DNA from: an uncultured Alphaproteobacteria bacterium
GTDB lineage: Bacteria > Pseudomonadota > Alphaproteobacteria > Rs-D84
Assembly (NCBI GenBank): GCA_934276735.1
Contig: CAKQTG010000002.1
Location: 270,638 to 334,637, forward strand
Direction: 5' to 3'
Length of the DNA stretch: 64,000 nt
Shown: piece by piece, positions 5,593-29,612 of the stretch
Position numbering within the stretch: the first letter of the stretch is position 1
How the letters are laid out: each line of letters begins with the position of its first letter
Position numbers and translations under genes: made by a program
The notes under the pieces: generated by a model
What the model was told of the DNA's origin: nothing
What the model saw: only the letters and a program-made list of their open reading frames with translations
Database searches by the model: none

Positions 5593-5665
5593 TTCTGTAT
5601 TCCCCTTTGTAACACGGGGTATTTTATAACTTGAATTGATTCAGCGCAAGTTTTAATATGCGAAT

Positions 5666-7192: not shown

Positions 7193-7232
7193 GTAGTGAT
7201 AGAGTGACAAAGTGATAGAGTGATAAAGTGAA
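7188..7232. repeat. left inverted-repeat arm built of iterated GTGATA(R)A units
   Basis: agtgagtagtgatagagtgacaaagtgatagagtgataaagtg pairs with the reverse complement of 7592-7628. Confidence 0.6.
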
Positions 7233-7593
7233 AGAAAGCGTTCTGAAAATTAAATCCGAATTGTTTGCAGACAGAATTGTCAGGTTATTCAAATATCTGC
7301 AAACAACGCATTCCGAATTTGTGTTATCAAAACAAATTTTACGTTCTGGGACCAGCATGGGCGCCAATGTATCAGAGGCTGCTTTTGCCGCATCAAAAAA
7401 AGATTTTTTAGCAAAAATGATTATTGCAACCAAAGAATACAATGAAACTATTTTCTGGTTGCAAAGGTTAAAAAATGCACATTATTTGTCAGACGAACAA
7501 TTTACATCAATACATAATGATTGTCTAGAACTGGGACGTTTGCTGATGGCCACAACGCGCACGACCAAGGCATCAATATTATCAGACAAATAA
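7228..7593 (+). CDS. four-helix-bundle protein of the 23S rRNA intervening-sequence protein family
   Basis: The sequence LQTTHSEFVLSKQILRSGTSMGANVSEA...ETIFWLQ is typical of the four-helix-bundle/IVS protein family. The GTG start lies inside the repeat arm. Confidence 0.65.
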   Translation: MKESVLKIKSELFADRIVRLFKYLQTTHSEFVLSKQILRSGTSMGANVSEAAFAASKKDFLAKMIIATKEYNETIFWLQRLKNAHYLSDEQFTSIHNDCLELGRLLMATTRTTKASILSDK

Positions 7594-7628
7594 CTTTATC
7601 ACTAAATCACTTTATCACTTACTCACTA
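7592..7628. repeat. right inverted-repeat arm
   Basis: cactttatcactaaatcactttatcacttactcact is the reverse complement of the iterated left-arm motif. A bidirectional terminator hairpin follows at 7629-7660. Confidence 0.6.
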
Positions 7629-7652
7629 AAAAATGGGGCATCGCCCCATTTT

Positions 7653-8618: not shown

Positions 8619-8663
8619 GTCAAATATTATATCACAAAACGCATATGATAAAAACAGATTTTA

Positions 8664-10463: not shown

Positions 10464-10464
10464 C

Positions 10465-12228
10465 TTATTTTACAATATCGTGAAATATTTCTGCCGGGAT
10501 TGTGCCACCTGTAACCTTGGACGACATAGGGGTAAAATCGTCATTTCCGACCCAAACACCAATCACCCAATCAGGCGTTGCCCCAACGAACCACGCGTCG
10601 CGATTATTATTGCTGGTCCCGGTTTTCCCGCCCAGGACGTTATCTGAATTTGCGCGACGGCCCGTGCCACGAACAACAACATCGGCCAACAATTCGGTCA
10701 TGTATTCAACCGTCTGGGGTTGCAAAACCTGTAACGCGTCGGACGGATTACGTTCATACAGCACGTTGCCACGCGGATCAGTTATCTTGGTAATTGAATA
10801 TGGCCGCACCGACGCGCCATCGTTCCAAATCACCGCATATATCGTCGTTAAATCCACCAGTGACATTTCCGACGCGCCCAATACCGTTGAATATTCACGG
10901 CGTAATTTTGTTCCCACCCCCAGGCGCGACGCCATATCCAACACGGCGTCAATTCCATATGTTTCGGTCAATTTCAGTGGGACAGAATTCACACTTTTTG
11001 CAAACGCGGTTGCCAACGTTATGTCGCCATAATAACGCGCATTGTAATTTTTCGGATTGTAATCACCAATCGCAAATGGTGAATCATTGACATACGTTTC
11101 CGGCGTCATACCGTGTTCCAGCGCAACCAGATATACGACGGGTTTAAACGAACTGCCGGGTTGGCGCATTGTTGTCGCACGGTTGAACTGGCTGGTCTGG
11201 TAATCAGTGCCACCAACCATCGCACGCAACGCCCCCGACGACGTCATTGCGACCACCGCACCCTGGTATTGGTCAACATGTGACGGCAAAATTGCGGCAA
11301 TACGTTCCTGCAAATTCCGGTCCAGCGTAGTGTGCACAATCAAATCAGAATCTGTCACCCCCAGGCGCGAGTGCACCTCGTCCAAGACATAGTCCGTCCA
11401 ATAGCGATATATATTTGTATCCGGCACAGGGGTCGCAGGTGCCAATTCACGTGCGGCGGCGCGCGCATCGTCCAGGCTGACGTATCCCTGGCGCACCATT
11501 TCCTGTAACACAACGCGGGCGCGTTTAATATTACGCTCTGGGTTTTTCAGCGGACTGTATGACGTTGGGGCCTTTAACATTGCGGCGATTTGCGCCGATT
11601 GTGCCAATGTCATTTTATCGGCCGATGTTTGGAACATAACGCGCGCGGCGGCATCAATACCACGCATACCGCCAACCAATGATACGCGGTTCATATATAA
11701 ATCCAAAACCTGGTTTTTATCAAAGCGATTTTCCAGCCAGTATGACAGTATCAATTCCTGGACCTTGCGCGAGAGTTTCTTTTCCCGGGACAAGAATATG
11801 TTTTTTGCGGTCTGTTGCGTAATAGACGACCCGCCCGCCGCCAATCGGCCATGGATTGCATTTGAAAACATTGCGCGCGTAATCCCGCGGATATCAATCG
11901 GTCCATGTTCAAAGAAACGTTTATCTTCGATTGCGACGATTGCCTGCCATACGTGTGGGGGCAATGTGTCAACCGATACCGGCGTGCCCATAATGCGACC
12001 CGCGCTGCGTATTTCATTACCATTTTTATCCAGGAATATCACCGCCGCCGGACGCGTTTCGTGCAATATCGCATCCAAGGACGGCATCTGCAAGAATATA
12101 ACCGCGACATACGTCGCCACCGCCACCGCGCACAACAGCCCCAGATTTATCATCCACACAAACAGACGCCACCGCCAACTGGGGCGCGGCTTTTCCGGCG
12201 TTAAATCGGTGTTTTTTGCACGTGGCAA
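10465..12228 (-). CDS. class A penicillin-binding protein (transglycosylase-transpeptidase)
   Basis: A GT51 motif (EDKRFFEHGPID) sits after the TM anchor. The transpeptidase motifs SSFKP, SVN and KTGTS are present. At 587 aa it is unusually short for PBP1A. Confidence 0.75.
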   Translation of the reverse strand: MPRAKNTDLTPEKPRPSWRWRLFVWMINLGLLCAVAVATYVAVIFLQMPSLDAILHETRPAAVIFLDKNGNEIRSAGRIMGTPVSVDTLPPHVWQAIVAIEDKRFFEHGPIDIRGITRAMFSNAIHGRLAAGGSSITQQTAKNIFLSREKKLSRKVQELILSYWLENRFDKNQVLDLYMNRVSLVGGMRGIDAAARVMFQTSADKMTLAQSAQIAAMLKAPTSYSPLKNPERNIKRARVVLQEMVRQGYVSLDDARAAARELAPATPVPDTNIYRYWTDYVLDEVHSRLGVTDSDLIVHTTLDRNLQERIAAILPSHVDQYQGAVVAMTSSGALRAMVGGTDYQTSQFNRATTMRQPGSSFKPVVYLVALEHGMTPETYVNDSPFAIGDYNPKNYNARYYGDITLATAFAKSVNSVPLKLTETYGIDAVLDMASRLGVGTKLRREYSTVLGASEMSLVDLTTIYAVIWNDGASVRPYSITKITDPRGNVLYERNPSDALQVLQPQTVEYMTELLADVVVRGTGRRANSDNVLGGKTGTSNNNRDAWFVGATPDWVIGVWVGNDDFTPMSSKVTGGTIPAEIFHDIVK

Positions 12229-12337
12229 TTGTAATCCTTGTGTCCTTTCGGTGGAATTATATCACAAACAACTTGCGTTATGCCAGATTTTAAAACTATA
12301 ATTCAGCACGAATGTAACCCCAGGGGGAAAAGGAATA

Positions 12338-13062
12338 TGAAAAAATTATCTGTTTTGTTTTTAACCGCGATGTGCGCCGTGCCTGCGATGGCGGAACCAA
12401 TGTATGGCACATCTGACGAATACGATTATACGGACGAAGAAATCGCCCCATTGTCACAAGGTGCGCCATCGGTTGGATATTCCGCCCCGGCCCCCACATC
12501 AACATCGCGGCGCGGCGCGCGTGACAATTATGTTGGATTTCGCGTGCACCAGAACGCGCACCTGGCCATGAAATACGATGTAAATCACGGATACACCACA
12601 CATAAAACGAAAAAGAACACGGGGCTGAGTCTGAACGTCGGCAACCGTCTGACCGAATATGTGAAAATTGAATTTGAAACGGGATACACTGGCGCAAAAT
12701 TTACCAAGCGCGACACACATCACGATTACGATTTGTGGTCTAATATGCTGAACGTGTATATGTATAAAAACTTTGGCGGTGCGGTTGAACCGTATGCCGG
12801 ACTGGGCGTCGGAATGACCGGAATCTGGGGCGAAATATCCGGTGCGGCACCGCACATCACCGCATCAACGTTGGATTTGTCGGTCCAGGGTATGTTTGGT
12901 GTGAACTTTGCATTAAATGACCGGGTTGACCTGAACCTGGGGGCAAAGTATATTCGATATGGCCGCATTGAATTTGAACATAACAACGGCGAATACGCAA
13001 ACACCCGAATTGACGCCACCGAATTCTTTATCGGCGCGGCGTATAAGTTTGATGTAAAATAA
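12338..13062 (+). CDS. outer-membrane beta-barrel protein, OmpA/OmpW-like barrel domain
   Basis: An RBS (gggggaaaaggaa) lies upstream. The signal peptide is MKKLSVLFLTAMCAVPAMA. The protein has alternating-hydrophobic strands and ends FFIGAAYKFDVK. A terminator follows at 13063-13088. Confidence 0.5.
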
Positions 13063-13083
13063 AAATGCCCGTTTGGGCATTTT

Positions 13084-15413
<2,330 letters not shown>

Positions 15414-15523
15414 GTTCTCTCCATTACCAAAACTGTTATACCTGTTGCGTTTATTGTTTTATATTCTAATTATGATTGAATTCTTAGTAAAAATCAATTA
15501 CTTTTTTCATATAAATCACAAAA

Positions 15524-15558
15524 AAATAAAAACGCCCGCCAAAATCGACGGGCGCAGT
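15524..15558 (-). terminator. rho-independent terminator downstream of fabI
   Basis: On the minus strand, ctgcgcccgtcgattttggcgggcgtttttatttttttgtg forms a hairpin followed by a T-run. Confidence 0.55.
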
Positions 15559-15570
15559 GTGTGGATGAAA

Positions 15571-16383
15571 TTATTTTTCATCCAGCCCCTTTAACAAAAT
15601 ATCTTTCAATTCGTTCGGCATCATGCCCGTTGTGGAATAGCCACAGTCAACATGATGAATCTCGCCCGTGACGGCGGATGCCAGGTCACTGAACAGATAC
15701 ACCGCCGCCCCCGACACATCGTCCAGCGTCATGTTGCGACGCAATGGTGTCTGTTCCGCATTCAAGCGCAACATCGCCTTGAAACCGCCAACGCCCGACG
15801 ACGCCAGCGTCATAATCGGTCCTGCCGAAATCGCATTGACGCGAACATTGTCACGCCCCAGGTCGGATGCCAGATAACGCACACTGCTGTCCAAGGCAGA
15901 CTTTGCTACGCCCATAACATTATAATTCGGCACGGATTTTTCCCCACCAAAATACGTCAGGGCAACAATGCTGCCCCCATCGGTCATCAATTTTGACGCA
16001 CGACGAGTTAAGTCAACCAACGAATACACAGAAATATCCATTGTATTCTTGAAGTTCGCGCGAGTTGTATCGACATAGCGACCAGTCAATTCATTTTTAT
16101 CAGAAAACGCAATCGCGTGCAACATGCCGTCCAAATGCCCCCACTCGCGTTCAATGTTCGCAAACAACGAATCCATCTGTTCATCATTTTGGACATTACA
16201 TTCCTGGACAAATTTAGCCCCAATCGATTCGGCCAACGGACGCACGCGACGTTCCAGTGCCGGCATCGCGTAAGGCATCGCGATTTCCGCGCCCATTTCA
16301 TGCGCACGCCGTGCAATTGCCCACGCCATAGACCAATCGTTTGCAACGCCAGTAATCAGAATCTTTTTTCCTTTTAATAACAT
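15571..16383 (-). CDS. fabI: enoyl-ACP reductase (NADH)
   Basis: The product is an SDR with N-terminal GVANDWSMAWAIA. The catalytic Y...K is within the motif SVPNYNVMGVAKSALD. The start was trimmed to MLLKGKK (RBS aagggaag). Confidence 0.85.
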   Translation of the reverse strand: MLLKGKKILITGVANDWSMAWAIARRAHEMGAEIAMPYAMPALERRVRPLAESIGAKFVQECNVQNDEQMDSLFANIEREWGHLDGMLHAIAFSDKNELTGRYVDTTRANFKNTMDISVYSLVDLTRRASKLMTDGGSIVALTYFGGEKSVPNYNVMGVAKSALDSSVRYLASDLGRDNVRVNAISAGPIMTLASSGVGGFKAMLRLNAEQTPLRRNMTLDDVSGAAVYLFSDLASAVTGEIHHVDCGYSTTGMMPNELKDILLKGLDEK

Positions 16384-16474: not shown

Positions 16475-17707
16475 TTACAAACAATCTCTTAACTCTTTAT
16501 TATATCGTAACATTGTTGGTTGATTGGCAGGATCGTACAATATGTTTTTTTGATCAAAAATTAATTCTACAGCATTACCATGATGATCAATCAACAAAAC
16601 ATCATTGCCTCTAGACCGCATTTCTATATTTCTGTTGCGATTTTGGGTTATTATTGCATGTCTATATGCATCTATGTAAACCATATTTTCCCATTTATCG
16701 AACAACTTATATTGTTCAGGGCTTTCCGCCCAAGACAAAGGAACAACATGATGTAGTTCAAACCCTACTGTTCTTTTAACTTTGTGTTTATTGAAATACG
16801 CTTCCTTCTCAGCAATCGAACGAGTCATAACATCAATTACCTCGCCTGCTTTCGTTTTAATCTTATGTGTTGACAAATTCAAGTCATCCCCCACCACATC
16901 AAAATGAGGACTTTGTGCAAACAAATGATATACTTGATCTATTTTATTTTTCCAATTATGCCAATCTCGCTGTGCAGTCTTATCCCCATCAAAATTTTCT
17001 GGTTTTAATTTATCAGACAAAATCTCTATAACTTTTATTTGCAGATATTTGCCTAACCTGCGATATGTGTGTATCAAATCAACACACTGTTCTAAAGTTA
17101 TAGAAAAACTCGTTCCCGAATCTACGGCTGAAACAAAAAACATGAATTCATATTTTGTAATCGTACCGATATGATATTCAGGCTCCTTCAATAATTGTAA
17201 AGCAATTTCTATATATCCACCCAACAAAGTATCTATCGCCTTTGTAAAAATAAATGATCTATTCAACAGATCTCTTTCTCTTATAAACTTTACGCCATCT
17301 GGTGATAACGACACATATTTTGGCGATATGCGCCCGTACGGCGAAATAAAATTTCTATTCTTGTCATATCTAGTTATCAGCCCCATACGGTGTAAGTCAA
17401 CGAAAATGTTTTTGCGTATTGAGTCTTGAGTTCCCTTTCCAACGGCTGCGTTAACTTCCTCACAAAATCTAGCATAATCATATTCATCTATTGTGTTTTC
17501 TGGCCGTTTCTTTGAATCGGTATCCCTTATTCTCAAAAGTTGATTATTTGGGGCATACCTATCCAAACACATAAGCATTTTATAAATTTCATCCATATCA
17601 TAACGATTATGTTCTGACGAAACACCACCGCGATAATTAACATCATTAACTCTTGCATCTATAAAAGATAACGCCTCGTTTGGACTCAATCCACTAACAT
17701 AAATCAT
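16475..17707 (-). CDS. putative restriction endonuclease (third gene of the RM operon)
   Basis: This 410 aa product has no recognisable motif. It overlaps the upstream methylase stop by 4 nt (ATGA) and shares the AT-rich composition of the methylases. Its size is comparable with Type IIS R proteins. Confidence 0.35.
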   Translation of the reverse strand: MIYVSGLSPNEALSFIDARVNDVNYRGGVSSEHNRYDMDEIYKMLMCLDRYAPNNQLLRIRDTDSKKRPENTIDEYDYARFCEEVNAAVGKGTQDSIRKNIFVDLHRMGLITRYDKNRNFISPYGRISPKYVSLSPDGVKFIRERDLLNRSFIFTKAIDTLLGGYIEIALQLLKEPEYHIGTITKYEFMFFVSAVDSGTSFSITLEQCVDLIHTYRRLGKYLQIKVIEILSDKLKPENFDGDKTAQRDWHNWKNKIDQVYHLFAQSPHFDVVGDDLNLSTHKIKTKAGEVIDVMTRSIAEKEAYFNKHKVKRTVGFELHHVVPLSWAESPEQYKLFDKWENMVYIDAYRHAIITQNRNRNIEMRSRGNDVLLIDHHGNAVELIFDQKNILYDPANQPTMLRYNKELRDCL

Positions 17708-18495
17708 TGCACTACCCCTAGATTATTTTTTGTTAACTCTACATATTTTTTTGATTTGTCAGCACAAATATAGTTTCTATGCAATTTTTTTGCAACAACA
17801 GCTGTTGTTCCACTACCAACAAAACAATCCAAAACAAGTTCTCCTTTATTTGAACTCGCCAAAATCATGCGTTCAATCATTTCCTCTGGTTTTGGTGTGA
17901 CGTGCTGTTGTTTTTGCACTTTGCCATTAACTTTATTTTTGTGACGCTGACTTGTTATGTGCCACACTTCACCACATAACCTGCCATTCGGATTTGGAAA
18001 CCAACGTTTCCCATTTTTTAATATTCCTTTCGTTTTTGCAGCTTCTATTCTGTCTGTAGATTCATAAGGAACACGTATGTCATTGTGATTAAAAGTATAT
18101 TTATTAGACTTTGTAAAAAATAATATACTCTCTTGTCCATTTGCATATTTTTTTGTGGATGTACCGAGTCCATCCCTTTTATCCCAAGTGATCCAATTTT
18201 GGAACACTAGTCCACGTTTTAACAAATGCTGCAAAATAAACGCACAATTAAAAGGTGTATTAAAAATATATATACTTCCTGTATCTTTCAGTTTTGGTAT
18301 AAGTGCGTCTATCCATTTTCTTGTAAATTTCATAAAATCATCATGCGATGCAAATGTGTCCCAATCAGCTTTCCCCATATTGTAAGGTGGATCTATGACA
18401 GCCAAATCAACAGATAAGTTCTTTACCTGTTTCAGGAAGTTTATACAATCCATATTATAAATTTCGTTAATCGCCAAACAACCCATCGCTAGCAC
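17704..18495 (-). CDS. beta-class DNA methyltransferase (N6-adenine type, DPPY)
   Basis: Motif IV is VIDPPYNMG near the N-terminus and motif I is LDCFVGSGTTAVVA near the C-terminus. Confidence 0.75.
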   Translation of the reverse strand: MLAMGCLAINEIYNMDCINFLKQVKNLSVDLAVIDPPYNMGKADWDTFASHDDFMKFTRKWIDALIPKLKDTGSIYIFNTPFNCAFILQHLLKRGLVFQNWITWDKRDGLGTSTKKYANGQESILFFTKSNKYTFNHNDIRVPYESTDRIEAAKTKGILKNGKRWFPNPNGRLCGEVWHITSQRHKNKVNGKVQKQQHVTPKPEEMIERMILASSNKGELVLDCFVGSGTTAVVAKKLHRNYICADKSKKYVELTKNNLGVVQ

Positions 18496-19387
18496 CTAAC
18501 TTTTTATTGATTATATCTTTGTAATGATCATACAATTCATATCCTACAAAATGTCTCTTGTTTTCTTTTGCAACTTTAAGTGTTGTTCCGCTACCCGCGA
18601 AAGGATCAAGTATCAATTCACCAACAAAAGAATACAATCTAATCAATCTGCGAGCTATTTCTTCAGGCATGATAGCTGAATGTATACCAAATGCAAGATC
18701 GCCTTTTCCAGGGATTGGTATGTTCCAAATCTGCTTTGTATATTCGACCCACTCTTGCTGTGTTAGCTGGCTGGCATCTTTTATATCCTGTGGCAACCCA
18801 TTTTCAGGACTTCCTTCTTTCACAAATACTACTATGAATTCACACGAATTCTGGGCATAAAAATTACGTGGATATGGATAACTGCCAAACATCAATTTCT
18901 TGGACGAATTTGTTCTGTTCCATATAAACAAATCCAATAAAAATAATTTTGTGTTTTTTAATATTGACTGTTGTATGTGACTCTGTAAATCAAATATGTC
19001 CCTGTTATAATGCGTGCACATTTGGGATTTCAACATCGGCATTAACGGAACATTTATGCACAACTTACCATTAGGCTTCAACACCCTTTCACATTCTTTC
19101 CAAATTTTTACTAAACCTGCGATATAATCATCAAAATCGGCATAAGCCCCCATATCATCACACTTCCTTTCAGAATGTTTACAATCTTGGTGACCATCTT
19201 TACTGTAATCTTTTATGTTAAAATATGGCGGTGATGTCACAATAACCTGAACCGAATTATCCGGCAATTCTGACATTTTTTCCGAACTTTTGTAGAAAAC
19301 TTTATCAATGTATTCTTTCATTTTCTTTCCTTGCTGAAAACTTAGCCCAAAACAATGGATAAAGTCAAGGGAACAATCAAAAAACAT
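18467..19387 (-). CDS. beta-class DNA methyltransferase (SPPY type, N4-cytosine or N6-adenine)
   Basis: Motif IV is VTSPPYFNIKDY and motif I is LDPFAGSGTT. It overlaps the next methylase gene by 29 nt. Confidence 0.75.
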   Translation of the reverse strand: MFFDCSLDFIHCFGLSFQQGKKMKEYIDKVFYKSSEKMSELPDNSVQVIVTSPPYFNIKDYSKDGHQDCKHSERKCDDMGAYADFDDYIAGLVKIWKECERVLKPNGKLCINVPLMPMLKSQMCTHYNRDIFDLQSHIQQSILKNTKLFLLDLFIWNRTNSSKKLMFGSYPYPRNFYAQNSCEFIVVFVKEGSPENGLPQDIKDASQLTQQEWVEYTKQIWNIPIPGKGDLAFGIHSAIMPEEIARRLIRLYSFVGELILDPFAGSGTTLKVAKENKRHFVGYELYDHYKDIINKKLGASDGLFGD

Positions 19388-20025: not shown

Positions 20026-20101
20026 TCGGGCATAGTTCAGTCGGTAGAACAACGGACTGTTAATCCGTATGTCACTGGTTCGAGTCCAGTTGCCCGAGCC
20101 A
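20026..20101 (+). tRNA. tRNA-Asn (anticodon GTT)
   Basis: A cloverleaf can be drawn with acceptor TCGGGCA/TGCCCGA, D-arm GTTC-AGTCGGTA-GAAC, anticodon arm ACGGA-CTGTTAA-TCCGT and T-arm ACTGG-TTCGAGT-CCAGT. CCA is encoded. Confidence 0.85.
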
Positions 20102-20746
20102 CCTATTTCCGCAGATTTCTGCGGATTTTTTATTATCTATTCTCTACCACGTTTTTATGCAAAATTGGATGAAAGTTGCTCTAAATTGCCCTAGTTATAA
20201 AACAAAAACACATATTTGACACACAGTAATATATACTATTACTGCTGAAATCATCTCTGAAATCACACAGATTTCATACTTGAAACCATAGATGAAATCG
20301 TGATGGAATCATACCTGATTTCAGTATTGATTTCATACCTGAAAAGAGCCTTTTTTTGCCTGCGAAATATGGAACGCTATTCCGTCAGTCACAAAACCAA
20401 AACACACAAAAATCAAACAGTTATAAAAATACGATTTTTCCCCATGTGTCAAATATGTGTCTTTATTTTTGCACTTTTTTATTTTTGAATAAACAACTGG
20501 ACAAAGACAAAAAATAAGCACAAATGCAATGATTACTTAAAGTATTTATAAACGACAAATATCCAACCGGCCTAATAATAGCCCACCCCCAAAAAAAGCA
20601 AACGTGTTTTATATCGCTATGGGGTACAAAATTTACATAAAATATAACCTGCTTCCTCTTGAAAAATTTGAATTCGATCCTATATCTATCTGCACAAAGG
20701 AAGATTTTTATGCGTATATTTATAAACATAATCGGATATTGTACAG

Positions 20747-21262
20747 ATGGAGAATGGCATGCAACCAAAACACCAAGTGTTTTTTAGTTTTCATTTTGCC
20801 CGCGATGCCTGGCGAGCAGGTCAGGTAAGAAACATTAGAGATTTGGACGGCAATACGCCCGTGTCTGATAATGATTGGGAACAGGTTAAACGCGGCGGGG
20901 ATGCGGCGATTCGAACTTGGATAGAAAATCAATTGAAATACAAATCTTGTACAATTGTTTTGATAGGGACGGAAACTGCAAGTCGTCCATGGGTTAATTA
21001 TGAAATTAAGCGAAGTTGGGAGCTTGGCAAAGGCGTGTTGGGGATTTATGTGCATAATTTGCAAGACCGCATGTGCACTCAATCGCCCAAAGGGTCAAAC
21101 CCTTTTGCAAATTTTAATTTGAATGGTGTGCCTTTTGATAAAATTGTTCCAGTATATTGTGTCGAAGATTGGGAACCAAGCACAGAAGTTTATAAAAAAA
21201 TTGCCACAAATATTGGTTCGTGGGTGGAGAACGCAATTAGGATCCGGCAATTATACCCTTAA
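20747..21262 (+). CDS. TIR-like domain protein (DUF1863/MTH538-type, ThsB-like)
   Basis: The N-terminus VFFSFHFARDAWRAGQV and the segment CTIVLIG...SRPWVNYEIKRSWELGKG are hallmarks of the DUF1863 TIR-like family. Confidence 0.65.
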   Translation: MENGMQPKHQVFFSFHFARDAWRAGQVRNIRDLDGNTPVSDNDWEQVKRGGDAAIRTWIENQLKYKSCTIVLIGTETASRPWVNYEIKRSWELGKGVLGIYVHNLQDRMCTQSPKGSNPFANFNLNGVPFDKIVPVYCVEDWEPSTEVYKKIATNIGSWVENAIRIRQLYP

Positions 21263-21267
21263 CAGAT

Positions 21268-21921
21268 ATGGAGGAATATATGAGCAATTATTTTAATATA
21301 AAAGATTTCGATACACTTGAATTAAAATCACCCCCACGGCATTTTAATAATAGTTTTGCGTGTGACGAGTCGATTGGCAAACAGGGTGCGTATGATATAT
21401 TTATCTCCCATAGCTCTGCAAACAGGGAGCTTATCAGCAAATTACGGCAAGTTTTGGAAGAACGGTTTGGTTTGTCCGCATATATTGATTGGGATGAAGA
21501 TGGTGGTACAATAAGAGACGAAATTACAGAAAAAATAAAAAACGCTATGGATCGTTCTAAATCTCTATTATATGTAAAGACATCAGAATCTGACGACTCT
21601 CAATGGGTAGCATGGGAGGTAGGAAGGTTCGATGCAAAAAAACCAGATAATATTGCTGTCTTGCTTATTGAAGATGATAAATTTACCGAGGACACATGGC
21701 GACACAGAGAGTTTTTAAAGGATTATCAAATATTAGATAAAACAGATAATATTAAAGATTTTGTAAATATGGGACATAAAAAATTCTTCACTGCCAAACA
21801 AGCGCGCGACCTATCTTCTAAACTCAATTCTGGTGCAATCGCGGCAGTGGCTGCAATGGGGTCGTTATGCGATGTAACCCCCGGGTTAGGAACGCCAACG
21901 AAATACTTTGGTGACGAATAA
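21268..21921 (+). CDS. TIR domain protein (canonical bacterial TIR, ThsB-like)
   Basis: The sequence YDIFISHSSANRE...SAYIDWDE...SQWVAWEVGRF contains a candidate catalytic Glu in WEVG. The RBS is ggagg, and the gene is 5 nt downstream of the previous gene. Confidence 0.7.
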   Translation: MEEYMSNYFNIKDFDTLELKSPPRHFNNSFACDESIGKQGAYDIFISHSSANRELISKLRQVLEERFGLSAYIDWDEDGGTIRDEITEKIKNAMDRSKSLLYVKTSESDDSQWVAWEVGRFDAKKPDNIAVLLIEDDKFTEDTWRHREFLKDYQILDKTDNIKDFVNMGHKKFFTAKQARDLSSKLNSGAIAAVAAMGSLCDVTPGLGTPTKYFGDE

Positions 21922-21927
21922 TATAAA

Positions 21928-22458
21928 ATGAGAAAATTTACGAACACCAAACCCAGTTTATGGTATTTTAGACTTGCATTTGTAATTTTGAGCAGGTTCC
22001 CTAATTGTAAATGTCGCTGGGGTGCGAGAGACAAATTTATTATTTGGGAATATACGTATGTTTCACAAATAACACACAAGGCGTTCACGTTTTGTTTAAA
22101 TTACGAAATCTATCAAGAGCCTCGAATATGGGTTGTAGAGCCAGACCTTACACAACTTGCAGCTACAGAATTAAAACACGTTTATCCCCAACACTGCAAT
22201 CGTTTATGCTTGTTTCACCCCCACGATGCGCCATGGAATACACGCAAGGATATTATTAACACTATCATTACATGGGCGTTTTTATGGGTCGAATTTTATG
22301 AGTCCTGGAAAATTACAGGTTTTTGGTATGGAGCAGAGGCAGATCATACTCCAATACAAAAAACACACCAAAGCAATTTATCAAGGGAAACGCACCAGAA
22401 AAAACACTATAATAAAAATCTTCCTAAATATTTGAAAAACCATCCAATTAGATACTAG
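21928..22458 (+). CDS. hypothetical protein, third gene of the TIR operon (candidate effector)
   Basis: The 176 aa, Trp-rich product has no recognisable motif. It starts 6 nt after the TIR gene stop. Confidence 0.45.
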   Translation: MRKFTNTKPSLWYFRLAFVILSRFPNCKCRWGARDKFIIWEYTYVSQITHKAFTFCLNYEIYQEPRIWVVEPDLTQLAATELKHVYPQHCNRLCLFHPHDAPWNTRKDIINTIITWAFLWVEFYESWKITGFWYGAEADHTPIQKTHQSNLSRETHQKKHYNKNLPKYLKNHPIRY

Positions 22459-22569
22459 CCGTGTGTTTTATCGATATGACATTTGCTAACTTTTTACAAT
22501 CTTGTTTATAACCTCAATAAAACCATTCCCATTTTTCGCTGAATAAAGCCAGTGCTGTTTTTTTGCCTG

Positions 22570-23079
22570 TTATAGCTTTAGATGGCAGGTCCCTATTGTT
22601 GATAGGACATAATATACTACTAGTATCAATATGATAAAAAATGCAATCTTATAAACACTAAGCGATTTTGAGTTTAGAACATCTGACATACGAATGTACG
22701 TTTGTATATTTGCGATATTCATATCAAATAGAGCACATTTGTCCGCCAACGCATCGGTATATTTTTGGCGATAACACCGTTCCAGCCACAAATAATAAGC
22801 ATCAAACCAGAAAAAGCTAAGTGTCAATATAATTGCTAAAACAAGCAAGGCTACGTTTGGCAGTTTAAAATACAAAGCTATGAGTCCGCCGACAGAAACC
22901 ATAAACCAATTTTTTATCGAAAAGGAATTGCCATTCATTCTGGCAATAATATTCTGCAACATTTCTAAAAATTTAATTTTTTCGCTTTGCATACGATTAA
23001 CGATACTACACATCGATATAAATGCAAGTAAAACCAGAATTTTTGCACAAAAACCGGACTTCCGCAAAAAAACAAGCAC
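22570..23079 (-). CDS. small multi-pass membrane protein
   Basis: There are three to four hydrophobic helices across 169 aa. The start is ambiguous and could be 23079, 23010 or 22992. Confidence 0.4.
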   Translation of the reverse strand: MLVFLRKSGFCAKILVLLAFISMCSIVNRMQSEKIKFLEMLQNIIARMNGNSFSIKNWFMVSVGGLIALYFKLPNVALLVLAIILTLSFFWFDAYYLWLERCYRQKYTDALADKCALFDMNIANIQTYIRMSDVLNSKSLSVYKIAFFIILILVVYYVLSTIGTCHLKL

Positions 23080-23109
23080 AAATGCAACAACTTTTAAAGG
23101 GGTTGCATA

Positions 23110-23375
23110 TGAATTTCAAACATTTTGATGATATTAAACCAAATGATAAGGCACAATTTGAGATGCTATATTTTTCTGCCCAAAGGGCTTTAAGAAGGTT
23201 AGAACTTAAACTAAACAGGATTTATAACGGTAAAACGCCAAAACATTTGCGTATAGAATTAAAACAACTCAACCGCAAACTCACCCAAATGGCAGGCACA
23301 TGGAAAAATATATATTCCCCTTGCATTTACATAGAATTTTTTATATTCATTATGAATGAGAAAGAATACGTATGA
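23110..23375 (+). CDS. small hypothetical protein
   Basis: An RBS (aaagggg) lies 8 nt upstream. The 88 aa basic helical product starts MNFKHFDD.... Confidence 0.3.
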
Positions 23376-23431
23376 AACGGCTCTAAAATAGTTATTGATA
23401 TATTAAAAATATTTGTATATTAGGAGATATT

Positions 23432-23635
23432 ATGAAATTCGGAATCAGAACACCTTCGTTGAGTAAAAGAATTGCAGCAAGAACATCTTTAAAAAGAATT
23501 ATTAGACATAATTTGGGTGTTAAAGTTCCCAGAGGCTTCGGATGGATAACAAACCCTAAAAAAGCTGCCTATAACAGGGTATATAATAGAACCTCTATAA
23601 GCATCGATAAGCTATTCAAGAAAATCTTTAAATAA
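23432..23635 (+). CDS. small basic hypothetical protein
   Basis: A strong RBS (ttaggagatatt) precedes the ATG. The product is 67 aa and lysine/arginine rich. Confidence 0.35.
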   Translation: MKFGIRTPSLSKRIAARTSLKRIIRHNLGVKVPRGFGWITNPKKAAYNRVYNRTSISIDKLFKKIFK

Positions 23636-23650
23636 CATAGGAGTCAAGTT

Positions 23651-23884
23651 ATGAGTTCTACAATATGGCATTCAAATACAGAAGTTCCAGAAAATGGGGC
23701 TGATATTTTATGTATCGGCCATAACAGTAATGGCGACTTTATAATTTATGGCAAGGCAGAACATTATCAAAATAGTTTTTGTATTGTTGACAATGTAGAG
23801 GTTGAATATGCCACTGATATAGACAAGTGGTGTTATGCGAAAGATTTATTGGAATTATTAAAAAAAACTGACAGTTATAAATAA
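23651..23884 (+). CDS. small hypothetical protein
   Basis: The RBS is cataggagtcaagtt followed by ATG. The product is 77 aa. Confidence 0.35.
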   Translation: MSSTIWHSNTEVPENGADILCIGHNSNGDFIIYGKAEHYQNSFCIVDNVEVEYATDIDKWCYAKDLLELLKKTDSYK

Positions 23885-24141
23885 CCCATTAAAAATTCTA
23901 TAATATAACTATGATATGTTGGTACTAGGTACATCGTATATAACCGCATAAATTGCGGTTATATATTTAGTCGTTTTAAAGAACTTGAGAATTGAACGAG
24001 GCGCATAAACTCTCTTTCTTTATTTCAAAACAATTTGTTTTAGTATTTTACAGCTCCTCTAGTACACTTCTAATTTGCTCAGAAACGTTTAACCTGCCAA
24101 CGAGCCCCAGTAGTTTTTTTAAGAATTTGGGAAATTTAAGA

Positions 24142-25836
24142 TTATTTTGATAAGCGCACATCTATTAAATCTTTTATCTCGCTATTCTTGAATAAATTGT
24201 TATATGAAAATTTTGATCCAAGTTCTTCTTGCTTTTTGCTTGCTATATTTTTGACAACCTCTTCTGCTTTTTCTATATTTTTATTAAAAAGAGCCACAAC
24301 TTCTTTTTCTTGGATATTGGGAAGTTTTAAATTAGCTTCTATAGATGATAATGCATACATTATTGCATAAATAGCATGCGAAAAGAAAGTATCTGTTGCT
24401 GCTTTATTTTTTATTTCTTTCCAAACAATGTATGCGTTATACAATTTATTTTGTATATTATTTTCTAGTTCTTTTTCAGAAAAAACAGAATCAAAATACT
24501 GGTTAAAAACAGATATTTTTGACACCTTCGCTTTTCCCGGCTCATTCAAAAACATAGCCACATAAGCCTGTAATAAATTTTCATTAGTTATGCTATCATT
24601 ATAATCTGTTAGTTCCTGTCCAACTTTTACAATTAAAGCAACTCCCTTGGTTTTAAAATACAGAGCTACTTTTTCTTGAATAAGATCATTAGATTTTAAA
24701 TCAACAACATTGATTGGGTTTTGGGAATTTGTTGCTTGTGCTATTTGTTGCATAATATCAGGATCTTTAGTTTTATACACACGCAATAACACTTTCGCCT
24801 TACTTAATTGTTCATAATTTTGTGATTCCCGATAAAATTTTGATAAAGCAGCAACGGTTTGCCCACCGTTAACTATACTCGGGCGCGTCAAAGTCAAGTT
24901 TATTTTTTCCTTATTACCTGTATGACCAGTTTTATAATCATCTGCTATAATTGTAATACCATTATTAAAAAACCAAAACAGTTCTGGTTTTTCACTTGCT
25001 GTTTTAATAATTTCTTTATTAATTTTACTTTTAGGCAAAAGATATCTCACATTGGAATTCAACAAAGCACCTTCATTGTTTTGTTTATAAAAATCAACTA
25101 AGTCACTTAAATATACTTCGGTTATAAACCCCGTTATAACCTGTGGTAAATCTTGTTTTAGAGTTTTGTCATCACAAATAATTTTTATTGTCGCACTATC
25201 AGGAACCTTCTCTTTTAATCCAAAATTTGTACTATCTATAAAATTTACATTTATCTCGTTGTTTATAGCTGTTTCTACAGCATCAGATTGCTTTAACACT
25301 TCCCCAATTATACCATTCGTTGAAAAGAAAACATGTACTCTGAGAGTAGGCCAATCATTTTGCTCACAAACCTCTCTAAGTTTATCAAGTTTTGATTTTA
25401 GCAACAAATTTGTAGTAGATAAATTCTCGCCCTTTTTTATTTTTTCTACGTTTTTTAGACATAATTCTATTTCATCTTGTGTAAATGTATTTTTGGCCTT
25501 TTTAGAAACGTGTTTGGCTTGTACTACAATCACATCCATAAATTTTTCATTAGAATTTGGCAGGGACACTATACTTTCATCATCAAAATATAGCAAATCT
25601 ATTTTGTTATCGCCACTGCCGTCCGTTAAGAAACAAATCGAAGAATTTATATCTACTTTTTTATATTCCATTATAGTAACTACAGCAGTAGCCAAAGAGT
25701 TAATATATTCTTTGTTTTGCAAACCTTGCCCATAATGCTTTTTAGCATATTCAGACTTTTTTATTAGCTTAGTGTTATCTTCTATTAGTCTATTAAATTT
25801 ATTTAAAGCATATTCATTTATGGAGGCATTAGACAT
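24142..25836 (-). CDS. AIPR family abortive-infection protein
   Basis: The N-terminal region reads CFLTDGSGDNKIDLLYFDDESIV, resembling the AIPR DGSGDxGID core. The gene is 564 aa and starts 10 bp after the R gene stop. Confidence 0.6.
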   Translation of the reverse strand: MSNASINEYALNKFNRLIEDNTKLIKKSEYAKKHYGQGLQNKEYINSLATAVVTIMEYKKVDINSSICFLTDGSGDNKIDLLYFDDESIVSLPNSNEKFMDVIVVQAKHVSKKAKNTFTQDEIELCLKNVEKIKKGENLSTTNLLLKSKLDKLREVCEQNDWPTLRVHVFFSTNGIIGEVLKQSDAVETAINNEINVNFIDSTNFGLKEKVPDSATIKIICDDKTLKQDLPQVITGFITEVYLSDLVDFYKQNNEGALLNSNVRYLLPKSKINKEIIKTASEKPELFWFFNNGITIIADDYKTGHTGNKEKINLTLTRPSIVNGGQTVAALSKFYRESQNYEQLSKAKVLLRVYKTKDPDIMQQIAQATNSQNPINVVDLKSNDLIQEKVALYFKTKGVALIVKVGQELTDYNDSITNENLLQAYVAMFLNEPGKAKVSKISVFNQYFDSVFSEKELENNIQNKLYNAYIVWKEIKNKAATDTFFSHAIYAIMYALSSIEANLKLPNIQEKEVVALFNKNIEKAEEVVKNIASKKQEELGSKFSYNNLFKNSEIKDLIDVRLSK

Positions 25837-25846
25837 TTTATTTACC

Positions 25847-26743
25847 TTACCTTAATAGCCCTTCCAACACACCTTTTTGAACCATGTCGATGTTAAGGAT
25901 ATAATCTGTTGTATCAAAAGTATCGCGTAACGGTCGCTGAGTTTTCTGCCAGCCTAAACCATCCGTTATCCATATAAACTGGTGCCCGTCTTTTGTCCAC
26001 TGATGATAAATATCTGCATATTCGCCTGCGGTTGATTTTAATTTTGATCCGCCACCGCCATAGAAATTTGTTTCTATCAGATATAGTTTATTAGGGGTAT
26101 TTATAGCAAAATCAACACGCTTGGATGATTTATTCACAATAATATTTTTACTCCATTTTCTATAAATTTTATCTGCTGTCGCCTGCGCAATATATTCATA
26201 ACCATTACGGTCACAAATATCTTTTATAAAATATTCCATCAAGTTTTCCATTGATGTGCCACTGCGGTTCTTGCGCCCATTTGAATCAAGTCCAACTTCT
26301 ACACCAAGAAAATAATCTGGTATAGATTTAATTGTACGGTCAGATACTAAATCAAGGAAGCCACTTGCTTTCATAAATAGGACACCATCCTCTGCAGACA
26401 TAGGCTTTGAAAAGTCAAAGCATTTAAGTCCAAAAGTTTTTATATCTGAAACAAGTTTAATTTTCTTTTCTCTATCGGCTAACAGTGCCGGTATAACACC
26501 TATAATTTTTGGATATTCCTTTAATAAATCTTTTGCTGCTTTTTCAACATCCGCCTTACCAATCAGAGTATTCAATAAGTTTAGTGCAATCTCTGCTTCG
26601 TGATAATTATTGATAACTTTTGACCAGTTAACAAAATAATCCCAAGATGTTATACTTTCTTTTAGGGTTGAAATCAAATAACCAAAAACGTCATCTTCGT
26701 TCTTGCAGCCCAAAAGTTCATCAAAAATTTTAGAATACTTCAT
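25847..26743 (-). CDS. Type II restriction endonuclease, DpnII/MboI-like (GATC-type system inferred)
   Basis: This is the third gene of a Dam-like M / beta-class M / R cassette with the same order and similar sizes to dpnM-dpnA-dpnB. It overlaps the upstream methylase gene by 4 nt. The product is 298 aa. Confidence 0.5.
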   Translation of the reverse strand: MKYSKIFDELLGCKNEDDVFGYLISTLKESITSWDYFVNWSKVINNYHEAEIALNLLNTLIGKADVEKAAKDLLKEYPKIIGVIPALLADREKKIKLVSDIKTFGLKCFDFSKPMSAEDGVLFMKASGFLDLVSDRTIKSIPDYFLGVEVGLDSNGRKNRSGTSMENLMEYFIKDICDRNGYEYIAQATADKIYRKWSKNIIVNKSSKRVDFAINTPNKLYLIETNFYGGGGSKLKSTAGEYADIYHQWTKDGHQFIWITDGLGWQKTQRPLRDTFDTTDYILNIDMVQKGVLEGLLR

Positions 26744-27525
26744 TTTATTCCTTTCTTTTCAAGGATATCATACAGCCTTTTTTCTGCCAATTCAACAAAT
26801 TGCGTTTCCTGTTCTATACCGACAAACATTCTGTCATATTTTAATGCCGCAACCCCAGTTGTACCACTGCCCATAAAAGGATCTAATATTAAATCGCCCA
26901 GATTTGTACAACATAAAATTATTCTTTCCAATAAATCCAAAGGCTTTTGTGTTGGATGCTTGCCAAAAGTTTTTTCTGATTTTGATGGCGTTGGAATAGA
27001 CCAAACACTGCGCATCTGGCAATCTGGCTTTTTCAAAATATCTTTTGGGAATGAACCACATTTCATGGCATCGTAATTAAATATATGTTTCGCGTTCTTA
27101 CTTTTTCTCGCCCAGATAAGTGTTTCATGGCTCGCGGTAAAGTATCTACAAGACATATTTGGACTAGCATTTGGTTTATACCACGCAACATCATTTAATA
27201 TATGAAAGCCCAACAACTGCATTGCAAAGCCACATGAGTATATACTGTGGTATGTACCACTTATCCAAATTGTGCCATTTGGTTTTAACACTCGCCAGCA
27301 TGCAGAAAGCCACTTTTTATGAAACTCAAAATCATTCATCAGTCCGTGCGACTCGTCCCACTTGCCTTTATTAACCGATACAACTTGACCATTTTGGCAC
27401 GTTATCCCCCCATTTGACAACATATAAGGCGGATCCGCAAAAATCATATCAAAGGTATTTTCTGGAATCTTTTCCAGACACGTTAAGCAATCTTCACAAT
27501 AAAGGCGAAAAGGTTTCTTAGTCAT
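26740..27525 (-). CDS. beta-class N6-adenine DNA methyltransferase (DpnA-like)
   Basis: Motif IV is IFADPPYMLSNGG near the N-terminus and motif I is LDPFMGSGTTGVAA near the C-terminus. Confidence 0.8.
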   Translation of the reverse strand: MTKKPFRLYCEDCLTCLEKIPENTFDMIFADPPYMLSNGGITCQNGQVVSVNKGKWDESHGLMNDFEFHKKWLSACWRVLKPNGTIWISGTYHSIYSCGFAMQLLGFHILNDVAWYKPNASPNMSCRYFTASHETLIWARKSKNAKHIFNYDAMKCGSFPKDILKKPDCQMRSVWSIPTPSKSEKTFGKHPTQKPLDLLERIILCCTNLGDLILDPFMGSGTTGVAALKYDRMFVGIEQETQFVELAEKRLYDILEKKGIK

Positions 27526-28450
27526 AATTAGTTATCAATAACTCACGAATAGCACTGCGCCCGTCTGCATTTGCATTTATCAAACGCTTTGCAAGTATTC
27601 TATTTATATTATAGTCTTGGTATAAATCATCAAAGAATGTGTCTTTTATATAATTTGTTGGATCAGAATTACTTAACATTTGTAAAGCACCCGCTTTATC
27701 ACACGCTTCAAAAACATTCTTAAGGCGAATTTGCTCATCATCATTAAAATCCCCAACAGCATAAGAATTAAACGAAGATGTTTTTCTAATCGGGCGATAT
27801 GGTGGGTCGTAATAGATAAACGTATCTTTATTTACATACTCTTGAACAGAACTAAAATCTGTTTGGATAATAGTCGCAATCTGTAAAGCGTCTGATACAT
27901 TGCGCAAATTTTCTGCGTCTAATATTCTTGGGTTGGTATACTTACCCATCGGAACATTAAACATATTTTTCGAATTAACACGAAACAATCCATTAAAACA
28001 CGTTCTGTTTAAGAATATGGTCAACGCTACACGTCTGACAAACCGCTGATTATAAATATTTGCATCGACGGTTTTGTCCATGTTGTTATATTCATCACGC
28101 CTTGCGTAATAATATTCTTTTTTATCTTCTGTATGATTATACTCTGCACTTATTTTTGTCAGTTCAACTATCAATTTTTCAACATCATGTTTGATAACAT
28201 TATACAGAATAACCAACTCAGGATTGATATCAAACAAGAAAGCCTCTTTGATTGAGAACCGATTATAAATATCGAAGAACACAGCCCCACCACCAACAAA
28301 GGGTTCTATGTATCTTTTTATCCCACCCATTTTCAATTTTAAGGGCAGTTTTTCATCGATTTTATCTAATAGCTGTCCCTTGCCCCCTGCCCATTTTAAT
28401 ACAGGTTTGCACTCAATATAATCCGCTAATTTTGCTGGCAGTGGTGACAA
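27518..28450 (-). CDS. Dam-family (alpha-class) N6-adenine DNA methyltransferase (DpnM-like)
   Basis: Motif I is EPFVGGGAVFFDI near the N-terminus and motif IV is IYYDPPYRP. The Dam family recognises GATC. Confidence 0.8.
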   Translation of the reverse strand: MSPLPAKLADYIECKPVLKWAGGKGQLLDKIDEKLPLKLKMGGIKRYIEPFVGGGAVFFDIYNRFSIKEAFLFDINPELVILYNVIKHDVEKLIVELTKISAEYNHTEDKKEYYYARRDEYNNMDKTVDANIYNQRFVRRVALTIFLNRTCFNGLFRVNSKNMFNVPMGKYTNPRILDAENLRNVSDALQIATIIQTDFSSVQEYVNKDTFIYYDPPYRPIRKTSSFNSYAVGDFNDDEQIRLKNVFEACDKAGALQMLSNSDPTNYIKDTFFDDLYQDYNINRILAKRLINANADGRSAIRELLITNYD

Positions 28451-28671
28451 TTTTTCCTTTCCTTTACGATTTGATATTACAAAATCACGCCACCTAAATC
28501 CAGTAGTTATTTTTTACTTGTGGTTGTTTTTAATTGCTTTTGATTACTTTAAAAACTTTGAACAAAAACACACAGAAACACATAGAAATAGTACACAGCC
28601 GATGTCACCACAAACAAAAAAATCCAAGTTTTCTGCGGAATTCAGCCATTTTTGAAAAAATTGTACAATTC

Positions 28672-28728
28672 ACTGTTAATCTGTATGTCACTGGTTCGAG
28701 TCCAGTTGCCCGAGCCACAAATTCCAGG
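28672..28728 (+). repeat. direct repeat of the tRNA-Asn 3' half (att-type island boundary)
   Basis: The 47 nt sequence actgttaatctgtatgtcactggttcgagtccagttgcccgagccac matches tRNA positions 20056-20102 with one mismatch. Confidence 0.8.
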
Positions 28729-29135: not shown

Positions 29136-29274
29136 GTGTTTTATGATATAAAACCACTCATATCAATGCAAGGAATTTGGACTATAAACCGATTGACAAA
29201 ATATGATTTTTTAGTCTATGCTGGCCCCATAGTCATAAGACAAATTTCTGCATCTAAATCCCGGGGGGCACGCA

Positions 29275-29612
29275 TGGAACGCACAGAAACACATAAAATC
29301 ACAATTACGTTGAAATTTGAACTGTTACTAGGCGACAAAGACATATGTTGCAGCATTTGCGGCCAACCGATAACCAAGAAACAAAAAATGTCCATTGATC
29401 ATCACATTCCGCGCATGCACGGCGGGACCGACTATCGCGGAAATCTGTTTCCGGCGCACCAAATTTGCAATTCGATAAAGGGCGACCTGATGCCCGAGGA
29501 ATTTGAGGCCCGCAAAGAAGACCTGTTTGGGCACGCATTAGTTTCGTGGAAATTAAAGAAGGTTGATGTTGCAATCGTCGCACGCGCGTTGGCCAGCATG
29601 CGCAGCAAATAA
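29275..29612 (+). CDS. HNH endonuclease domain protein
   Basis: The motif CSICGQP...SIDHHIPRMHGGTDYRGNLFPAHQICNSIKG is an HNH motif. The start was trimmed to MERTETH (RBS gggggg). The long ORF from 29136 would abut the Nudix gene start codon. Confidence 0.55.

Follow-up and report, generated by a model that had tools for sequence, protein, structure and literature searches.

Genes encoding AIPR-family proteins have been described within restriction-modification (RM) operons since 2008 (PMC2292703, PMC3506569, PMC3632139). The AbiU1/AIPR/COG1479 family has been characterised as a ParB-superfamily nuclease domain that occurs with fused nuclease domains and is linked to RM systems (PMC3632139), and in one review AIPR proteins are said to have an N-terminal HEPN domain (PMC3506569). 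According to a 2026 review (PMC13064643), the AlphaFold model of AbiUi can be superimposed on FokI (1FOK) with 146 of 568 amino acids (aa) aligned, and AbiUi alone gives modest phage resistance and delays transcription of the phage. The present analysis concerns a 64,000 bp stretch of DNA from an uncultured alphaproteobacterium (GenBank contig CAKQTG010000002.1, positions 270,638 to 334,637; hereafter the window), in which two methylase genes (M1 and M2) and a restriction endonuclease gene (R) are followed by an AIPR gene. These four intact open reading frames (ORFs), on the minus strand at 24142-28450, are a real anti-phage operon, comprising a GATC-type RM cassette and then an AIPR/AbiU-family gene, which is likely to provide two autonomous, co-expressed layers of defence, namely GATC restriction and an AIPR effector. 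The pairing of AIPR with RM is already known and this instance of it is ordinary, and the original prediction of the operon, made from the sequence alone, overrated its novelty. What is new here is that AIPR alleles are uncoupled from R, and that DpnII cassettes have a cargo slot at their 3' end.

The proposed gene arrangement, with overlaps of 8 nt between M1 and M2 (27518-27525) and 4 nt between M2 and R (26740-26743) and a 10-nt gap before AIPR, matches the ORF list exactly (Table 1), and the motifs quoted in the original prediction are all present in the translations, far beyond chance expectation (M1, FVGGGAVFFD and DPPY; M2, DPPY early and FMGSGTT late; 564-aa AIPR protein, DGSGDNKIDLLYFD). 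Each product also scores well over the Pfam gathering score of its family: D12 methylase (PF02086, 1.3e-59), N6_N4 methylase (PF01555, 1.1e-57), DpnII (PF04556, 8e-93), and AIPR (PF10592, 6.1e-38). M1 is a Dam-family methylase as predicted (TIGR00571 dam, 1.5e-81, 274 bits versus a cut-off of 114.85), and its best match in the PDB is DpnM (2dpm, 4e-52). The start of M1 is supported by a 95%-identical cassette (L086; other sequences compared with the window are likewise given L numbers), because the alternative start codons TTG in the window and GTG in L086 occur at the same position and the Shine-Dalgarno sequence AAAGGAAAGGA is conserved upstream of both. M2 agrees with its proposed assignment to the beta-class methylases and belongs to the CcrM/HinfI/DpnA group: DPPY precedes FxGxG, the best solved match in the PDB is CcrM (6pbd, 1e-61), and the match to the NCBIfam CcrM model (2.2e-73) is under the equivalog cut-off.

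Similarity of R to PF04556, the absence of which would speak against the predicted MboI/DpnII endonuclease, was checked and found over profile positions 2-277 of 278 (311 bits versus a cut-off of 23). R additionally matches the PADLOC REase_II model (1e-90), and a PDB sequence search with R returned no solved relative. The suggested dpnM-dpnA-dpnB organisation also holds, as the lactococcal plasmid pSRQ700 encodes a methylase-methylase-endonuclease trio in the same order, to which M1, M2, and R are 38, 51, and 37% identical over nearly their full lengths. This plasmid trio is LlaDCHI, a characterised GATC system. M2 is also 51% identical to the second methylase of a Staphylococcus cohnii plasmid and, by analogy with DpnA, may methylate single strands. 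Finally, the 564-aa protein is an AIPR protein, as was claimed: it matches PF10592 over aa 259-534 (131.6 bits versus a cut-off of 25), and the PADLOC AbiU model over essentially its whole length (1e-40, aa 56-561).

The GATC specificity that this cassette would be expected to have receives indirect support from the surrounding genome. Palindromes were counted in 51 kb of host flanks around the low-GC region (window positions 1-15999 and 29001-64000), with expected numbers taken from a maximal-order Markov model. GATC is the most strongly depleted of the 4-nt palindromes counted, with 37 sites observed versus 182 expected (observed/expected ratio, O/E, 0.20), and its O/E within the genomic island that holds the operon is 0.47. 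The depletion is consistent with GATC restriction having acted on the lineage for a long time, and is not in itself proof of the site at which R cuts. Other palindromes are scarce in the same flanks as well (GTAC, O/E 0.22; AGCT, 0.43; TCGA, 0.47), which suggests past exposure of the lineage to several further 4-cutter restriction systems.

At least six other sequence contexts have their genes in the same M-M-R-AIPR order, among them L001 (GTDB, Candidatus Enterousia sp.), L081-84, L085, L086, and the S. cohnii plasmid, and the closest cassettes come from gut and rumen metagenomes and from Candidatus Enterousia metagenome-assembled genomes. The sampled AIPRs with at least 47% identity to that of the window all lie downstream of a DpnII R gene and on its strand, with a gap of ~10-20 nt or, in L081-84, an 8-nt overlap. 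The S. cohnii plasmid CP027420.1 (L125, record positions 7381-11642) has genes for two methylases (one of them Dam), for an endonuclease of the DpnII family, and for an AIPR-like protein of 566 aa whose sole annotation is hypothetical. These proteins are 27-51% identical to those of the window (R 38%, AIPR 27%), and R and AIPR are 102 nt apart; judged from its encoded proteins, the four-gene layout exists in Firmicutes too. More distant AIPRs (37-39% identical) are found in type I operons between hsdS and hsdR (L004, L006, L133) and beside a BglII-type system (L132), and L131 has no RM gene within ~3 kb of its AIPR. In L132 (6001-11938), two different AIPR genes flank the BglII-type methylase/endonuclease pair and a RelA_SpoT-domain gene, behind a Schlafen-like helicase. 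Plasmid AIPRs, including those in four Lactococcus records, are all <60% identical to the 564-aa protein, and 20-33% among the matches listed.

Comparison of related cassettes shows that AIPR and R do not share a history. For instance, the M1, M2, and R proteins of L086 are 95, 96, and 95% identical to those of the window and its AIPR is 47% identical. At the DNA level, identity is ~95% from ~28545 to ~25880, falls to ~57% by 25850, and is low onward, which places the breakpoint within the last ~10 codons of R. Similarly discordant pairs of R and AIPR identities are observed in L081 (80 and 61%) and between L081 and L085 (89 and 51%), and a further pair stands at 78 and 71%. The AIPR and R trees disagree, as do the pairwise identity matrices. 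The disagreement of the matrices and the sharp breakpoint show that AIPR alleles have recombined onto RM modules, and that a higher rate of evolution is not a sufficient explanation.

This uncoupling bears on the main rival explanation, in which AIPR would be a guardian of the type found with PrrC in EcoprrI, silenced by contact with the DpnII enzymes and becoming a free toxin once these are blocked by an anti-restriction factor from a phage, such that the two layers would be coupled. AIPR genes are indeed embedded in RM operons of several types (PMC2292703), guardians within RM loci are established, with PrrC as an example (PMC12707154), and the 8-nt overlap of R and AIPR in L081-84 would permit coupling at the level of translation. 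However, AIPR alleles shuffled relative to their R partners (with R/AIPR identities of 95/47 and 80/61%) are unexpected for a specific protein-protein sensor, and the discordant identities show that AIPR is not co-inherited with R in the way that an effector would be with the RM enzyme that it guards. The position after R is occupied in other cassettes by self-sufficient systems (PifA-like, Stk2-like, and Mrr), AIPR relatives sit beside unrelated RM types or, in L131, have no RM gene close by, and AbiUi works alone (PMC13064643). PrrC-like coupling is therefore weakened, and is unlikely.

Two further genes accompany some of these cassettes. In L081-L084 and L091, a 179-aa ORF of no Pfam family lies between the Dam-like and beta-class methylase genes (5773-6312 in L081). 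This insert belongs to one cassette lineage and is found together with AIPR (L081) as well as with a PifA-like gene (L091). Additionally, a convergent gene directly after AIPR in L081 (9723-11258), L084 (8765-10300), and L085 (2747-4282) encodes a 511-aa protein in which only a C-terminal SEC-C motif was recognised. These three contexts differ in other respects, and the window lacks the gene, whose product might be a further partner of the AIPR alleles in these loci.

The exchange of AIPR alleles at the end of R is paralleled by other genes. Metagenome contigs scanned with R yielded 37 loci, 34 of which had a substantial match (39-81% identical). AIPR was found in none of these 37 other DpnII loci, by tblastn or by the family hidden Markov model (HMM). 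Among the 27 loci tabulated, which had enough downstream sequence, a different co-directional gene starts at most ~30 nt from the R stop codon in 13 (Table 1), and L088 has an OLD-type ATPase and UvrD pair (Gabija-like) at +160 nt from R. An N6_N4 methylase gene after R in L111, L116, and L117 was considered as cargo and rejected, as it represents a gene-order variant (M-R-M) instead. In pairs of cassettes that are 86-98% identical, homology is lost at -12 to +5 nt of the R stop. L105 and L107 are 98% identical in the upstream flank, and ~75% homology resumes downstream past the cargo, such that only the cargo differs (Mrr_cat versus PDC-S18). No conserved junction motif (att- or attC-like) was seen after the R stop across the 27 cassettes.

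It is possible, though on balance doubtful, that the 3' end of a DpnII cassette serves as a dedicated platform for exchange, where recombination exactly at the R stop swaps anti-phage genes that have no promoter and rely on the RM module for expression. In that case AIPR alleles would be undergoing diversification in the slot, and its unannotated occupants (the 304-aa ORF of L090, the 205-aa ORF of L093, the 182-aa ORF of L109, the 159-aa partner in L092 and L097, and the DUF5677 protein of L096) would be new defence genes. Slot ORFs of L090, L093, L109, L092, and L096 have no PADLOC match and no Pfam match beyond one DUF, and such family-less ORFs are candidate anti-phage genes. Two further ORFs with neither a PADLOC nor a Pfam match lie near the slot, 52-68 nt off (L089, 6962-7693, 243 aa; L095, 5904-6389, 161 aa), and are candidates as well.

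Placement of the cargo has consequences for its expression. The operon promoter probably lies in the leader upstream of M1, which contains the TGTAATAT element and is presumed to have promoter function. Terminator prediction gave no terminator-like site at the R/AIPR junction, and terminator-like sites within the operon are no more frequent than in shuffled sequences. The gene spacing and the lack of a predicted terminator at the R/AIPR junction suggest that all four genes are carried on a single transcript. No promoter would fit into gaps this short, and cassettes cease to be homologous at the R stop, so that expression of the cargo would have to depend on signals within the RM module; the start of AIPR 10 nt past the R stop likewise implies that AIPR relies on them. 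This is the best available argument for transcriptional coupling. Downstream of AIPR (~175-205 nt), a perfect 12-bp hairpin (TATATAACCGCA/TGCGGTTATATA, ~23935-23966) is located between AIPR and a convergent 77-aa ORF (23651-23884), and the 252-nt region that contains it folds better than shuffled sequences (z -2.9). The hairpin has no U-tract on the operon strand and so does not define the 3' end of the transcript.

Alternatively, the RM cassette and AIPR could be adjacent merely through the clustering of genes in defence islands, each being transcribed and acting separately, with the tight spacing having no function. Defence genes do cluster generally (PMC12707154), most DpnII cassettes lack AIPR, and both the 102-nt gap in the S. 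cohnii plasmid and weak promoter-like hexamers in the 3' end of R are in line with separate expression. Nevertheless, the sampled AIPRs of at least 47% identity always follow a DpnII R gene on the same strand at the short distances given above, these gaps leave no space for an intergenic promoter, and homology between cassettes stops at the R stop. Given this recurrence and spacing, coincidental adjacency is very unlikely.

The AIPR protein itself was modelled with AlphaFold2 on an alignment of 33 relatives, giving a predicted local distance difference test score (pLDDT) of 90.8 and a predicted template modelling score (pTM) of 0.83. All 33 aligned relatives match PF10592, and a Pfam scan of them at E-values up to 1 detected no second domain and nothing in the N-terminal half. 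Invariant residues of the core are N262 and R264 (NVR), N292-G293 (NNG), N323-G324 and Q326-T327 in NGGQT (323-327), R352, and T369, N370, Q372, and P374 in TNSQNP (369-374). In a Foldseek search of BFVD (predicted viral structures), the model matched a phage AIPR protein (1e-15), GmrSD_N/DUF262 proteins (2.8e-5, 1.9e-4, and 2.7e-4), a ParB-like nuclease domain protein (2e-3), and a DndB-like protein (3.3e-3), all with a probability of 1.00. The predicted structure thus shows a ParB/DUF262-like fold in the AIPR core. Neither Foldseek of the full-length model against the PDB (best E 0.28) nor PDB sequence searches with AIPR, as a single sequence and as a profile, gave a significant match or a solved relative, and the nuclease-flavoured Foldseek matches in the PDB (Avs3, the N.BspD6I nickase, and Zip2-Spo16) are at chance level.

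In the N-terminal half, D76 and D80 are invariant in the same alignment and Q106 and K108 are at least 90% conserved. D80 is just before a strand (81-84) in the model and Q-x-K is at the end of another (98-108), which is the layout of PD-(D/E)xK nucleases. By hhalign, the AIPR profile places this motif block in register with GGTGDGGIDG...VYVQAKR of EcoKMrr, at a probability of 1%, which is not significant. When the AIPR profile was compared by hhalign with EcoKMrr and with the Mrr_cat, GmrSD_N, and DndB-like cargos, signature motifs were aligned in three of four cases at probabilities of 1% or less, and the DndB-like alignment was away from any signature motif; none of these matches is significant, and they serve as leads only. 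The motifs, and they only, suggest that the N-terminal half is a PD-(D/E)xK nuclease. Two other assignments were rejected: an N-terminal HEPN domain, as no conserved Arg/His was found in the N-terminal helices of the subfamily alignment, and MzaE of the MZA system, which matched with 52.9 bits versus a cut-off of 1050, locally to aa 256-386, and with no Mza partner genes in the island.

These features raise the possibility that AIPR is a type IV-like enzyme, in which a DUF262-like nucleoside triphosphate (NTP) switch and a nuclease, arranged in the opposite order to GmrSD, BrxU, or SspE, would form a modification-dependent or DNA-sensing restriction nuclease that cleaves phage DNA directly, without cell killing. 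The operon would then join a modification-blocked enzyme to a modification-dependent one. The Foldseek likeness to GmrSD_N, ParB, and DndB proteins and the (non-significant) register with the Mrr catalytic block are in its favour, as is the alternation of GmrSD_N, DndB-like, and Mrr_cat genes in the slot of sister cassettes. However, Foldseek gave no significant PDB match for the presumed nuclease fold of AIPR, the DUF1524/HNH half that defines GmrSD is absent, and AbiU is known for delayed transcription and weak protection. Direct cleavage of this kind is considered quite unlikely.

In the favoured reading of two autonomous layers, the first would operate as in DpnII, MboI, and LlaDCHI, with both methylases marking host GATC sites and R cutting unmethylated GATC in incoming DNA. 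In the second layer, AIPR would probably be a nucleotide-regulated nuclease, its ParB/DUF262-like domain probably binding nucleotides and its N-terminal D-x3-D...Q-x-K domain probably being a PD-(D/E)xK nuclease. It would act alone and, as a nuclease, back up GATC restriction against phages that evade it through few sites, prior methylation, modified DNA, or anti-restriction proteins. AIPR would not be a subunit of an RM enzyme. It is one of several interchangeable genes in the cargo slot, in an operon that rides on an 8.6-kb tRNA-Asn island. By extension from its relatives, the operon may confer phage resistance with an abortive-infection phenotype, and AIPR may have nuclease activity.

Several observations weigh against this reading. 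A promoter scan found no consensus sigma-70 site upstream of M1, and the weak promoter-like hexamers within the 3' end of R (25917-25890) make an own promoter for AIPR possible. The best M2 matches are GANTC enzymes (CcrM), so that the specificity of M2 is an assumption. The EcoKMrr match is at the motif level only, and Foldseek of the isolated aa 1-258 against the PDB gave nothing significant (best E 0.17). Additionally, lactococcal AbiU protects just 10- to 100-fold and delays phage transcription by an unknown route (PMC13064643).

The operon is cargo of a strain-variable island integrated at a tRNA-Asn gene, because the island is bounded by a direct repeat and the exact empty site is present in conspecific contigs. 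The low-GC stretch in which the operon is found has a GC content of 0.30-0.38 versus ~0.48. Two conspecific metagenome contigs (L127 and L128, with flanks ~97.8% identical) have one tRNA-Asn and exactly lack 20103-28671, and in the alignment of the window with L127 the two homology blocks overlap by precisely the 47-nt repeat. No recombinase family was detected among the island ORFs. Fragments of tRNA-Asn are also present near the cassette in L081, where they adjoin an integrase, and in L001.

Other genes in and around the island were recorded. No ThsA was seen, and the TIR genes of the island are paired with the E2-like gene. Just left of the tRNA-Asn, a second RM-like operon (16475-19387, minus strand) encodes beta-class N6_N4 methylases of 306 and 263 aa and a 410-aa protein, which matches a PADLOC type II restriction endonuclease model (1.5e-117) and has no Pfam family. 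This operon is also low in GC, yet present in the island-free L127 and L128. At the island border, an HNH endonuclease gene (29136-29612) adjoins a NUDIX gene; it is a 158-aa ORF in the window and is called at other lengths (112 and 148 aa) in conspecific contigs (L127-L130), and may be decaying or mis-started.

Table 1. Positions of the operon, island, and AIPR features in the window, and genes found after R in related cassettes (positions there refer to the individual locus).
Feature	Position	Strand	Description
M1	27518-28450	-	310 aa, TTG start; Dam/DpnM-like alpha-class N6-adenine DNA methylase
M2	26740-27525	-	261 aa; beta-class N6/N4 DNA methylase, CcrM/HinfI/DpnA group
R	25847-26743	-	298 aa; DpnII/MboI-family type II restriction endonuclease
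AIPR	24142-25836	-	564 aa; AIPR/AbiU1-family protein, cargo gene
R/AIPR junction	25837-25846	-	10 nt, GGTAAATAAA; AAGG-type ribosome-binding bases across R stop codon; cassette recombination breakpoint
Leader upstream of M1	28451-28545	-	Shine-Dalgarno and TGTAATAT element; conserved with RM module in L086, homology from ~28545
AIPR domain proper (aa 259-534)	24235-25062	-	ParB/DUF262-like; Pfam envelope, invariant columns of 33-sequence alignment, Foldseek
N-terminal motif block (aa 69-109)	25510-25632	-	TDGSGDNKID ... VVQAKH; candidate PD-(D/E)xK-type (Mrr-like) active site
tRNA-Asn (GTT)	20026-20101	+	Intact, left island end; ARAGORN
Direct repeat of tRNA-Asn 3' part	28672-28718	+	47 nt, right island end; 46/47 identical to 20056-20102
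Strain-variable defence island	20103-28671		8.6 kb, GC 0.34, holds operon; composition and empty site
ThsB-like TIR protein	20747-21262		Island gene; also PDC-M50B
Second TIR protein	21268-21921		Island gene
E2-like protein	21928-22458		PADLOC E2 4e-29, no Pfam
PDC-M50A-like protein	22570-23079		On strand opposite to TIR/E2-like genes of island
L091	after R		PifA-like KAP NTPase, PADLOC 4e-83
L092, L097	after R (159-aa partner in L092, 7945-8424)		GmrSD_N protein and 159-aa partner
L096	after R (1032-1769)		DUF5677 protein
L098	after R		Stk2-like Ser/Thr kinase
L099	after R		AAA_15/AAA_21 ATPase
L105	after R		Mrr_cat endonuclease
L107	after R		DUF5655 / PDC-S18 protein
L109	after R (182-aa ORF, 6894-7442)		182-aa ORF and DndB-like protein
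L119, L121	after R		SNF2 helicase and HATPase_c_3 (MORC-like) protein
L090	after R (2101-3015)		ORF of no family, 304 aa
L093	after R (939-1556)		ORF of no family, 205 aa

Overall, the operon adds a well-documented example of RM with an AIPR/AbiU-type gene, in which a DpnII-type cassette is carried on a small tRNA-Asn island. The slot after R, with its rotating single-gene defences and breakpoints at the stop codon, is a simple bait for new anti-phage genes. It is also a natural experiment on whether RM-linked accessory genes cooperate with the adjoining RM system or simply share its mobility and expression, and the uncoupled AIPR and R phylogenies favour the latter.

Among known systems, the RM module most closely resembles the DpnII cassette (dpnM-dpnA-dpnB of Streptococcus pneumoniae, MboI, and LlaDCHI of pSRQ700), with which it shares the order of Dam-like, beta-class, and PF04556 genes and the overlapping reading frames. 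Like the pneumococcal DpnI/DpnII cassettes, it also behaves as an exchangeable cassette with sharp borders. However, it has a fourth co-directional gene (AIPR) that pSRQ700 lacks, its enzymes are 37-51% identical to characterised DpnII-type enzymes, and it is located on a tRNA-Asn island and not at the pneumococcal dpn locus.

AIPR resembles AbiU (AbiUi) of Lactococcus lactis in matching the PADLOC AbiU profile and in its similar size (~560-590 aa), and the model and genomic context agree with the ParB-superfamily domain and RM linkage described for the AIPR/AbiU1/COG1479 family (PMC3632139). In contrast to AbiU, it has no companion AbiUii/HEPN gene, and its partner is a DpnII-type type II system. 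PrrC in the EcoprrI type IC locus is similarly an abortive-type effector encoded in an RM operon and provides a fallback layer at the same locus (PMC12707154), but it is no relative of AIPR, being an anticodon nuclease that the RM partner physically keeps silent, whereas the AIPR and R phylogenies of the window are uncoupled, which argues against PrrC-like coupling.

GmrSD, BrxU, and SspE, which combine a DUF262 NTP-binding domain with a nuclease domain, are comparable to AIPR in the two-module layout of a regulator and a candidate nuclease and in the Foldseek matches, and NGGQT of AIPR falls at the place of the DGQQR-type motif of DUF262 (hhalign, non-significant). Unlike these proteins, AIPR has no DUF1524/HNH, its candidate nuclease is N-terminal and of another type, and Pfam and HMM searches gave no sequence link. 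Finally, the slot is reminiscent of the defence hotspots of P2-like phages and P4-like satellites (PMC9122126), in that many alternative anti-phage genes occupy one fixed site flanked by conserved sequence, next to genes of unknown function that are candidate new systems. In contrast to those hotspots, the conserved frame here consists of the three genes of an RM cassette, the cargo continues the operon, starting at most ~30 nt from the R stop, and the carrier is neither a phage nor a satellite.

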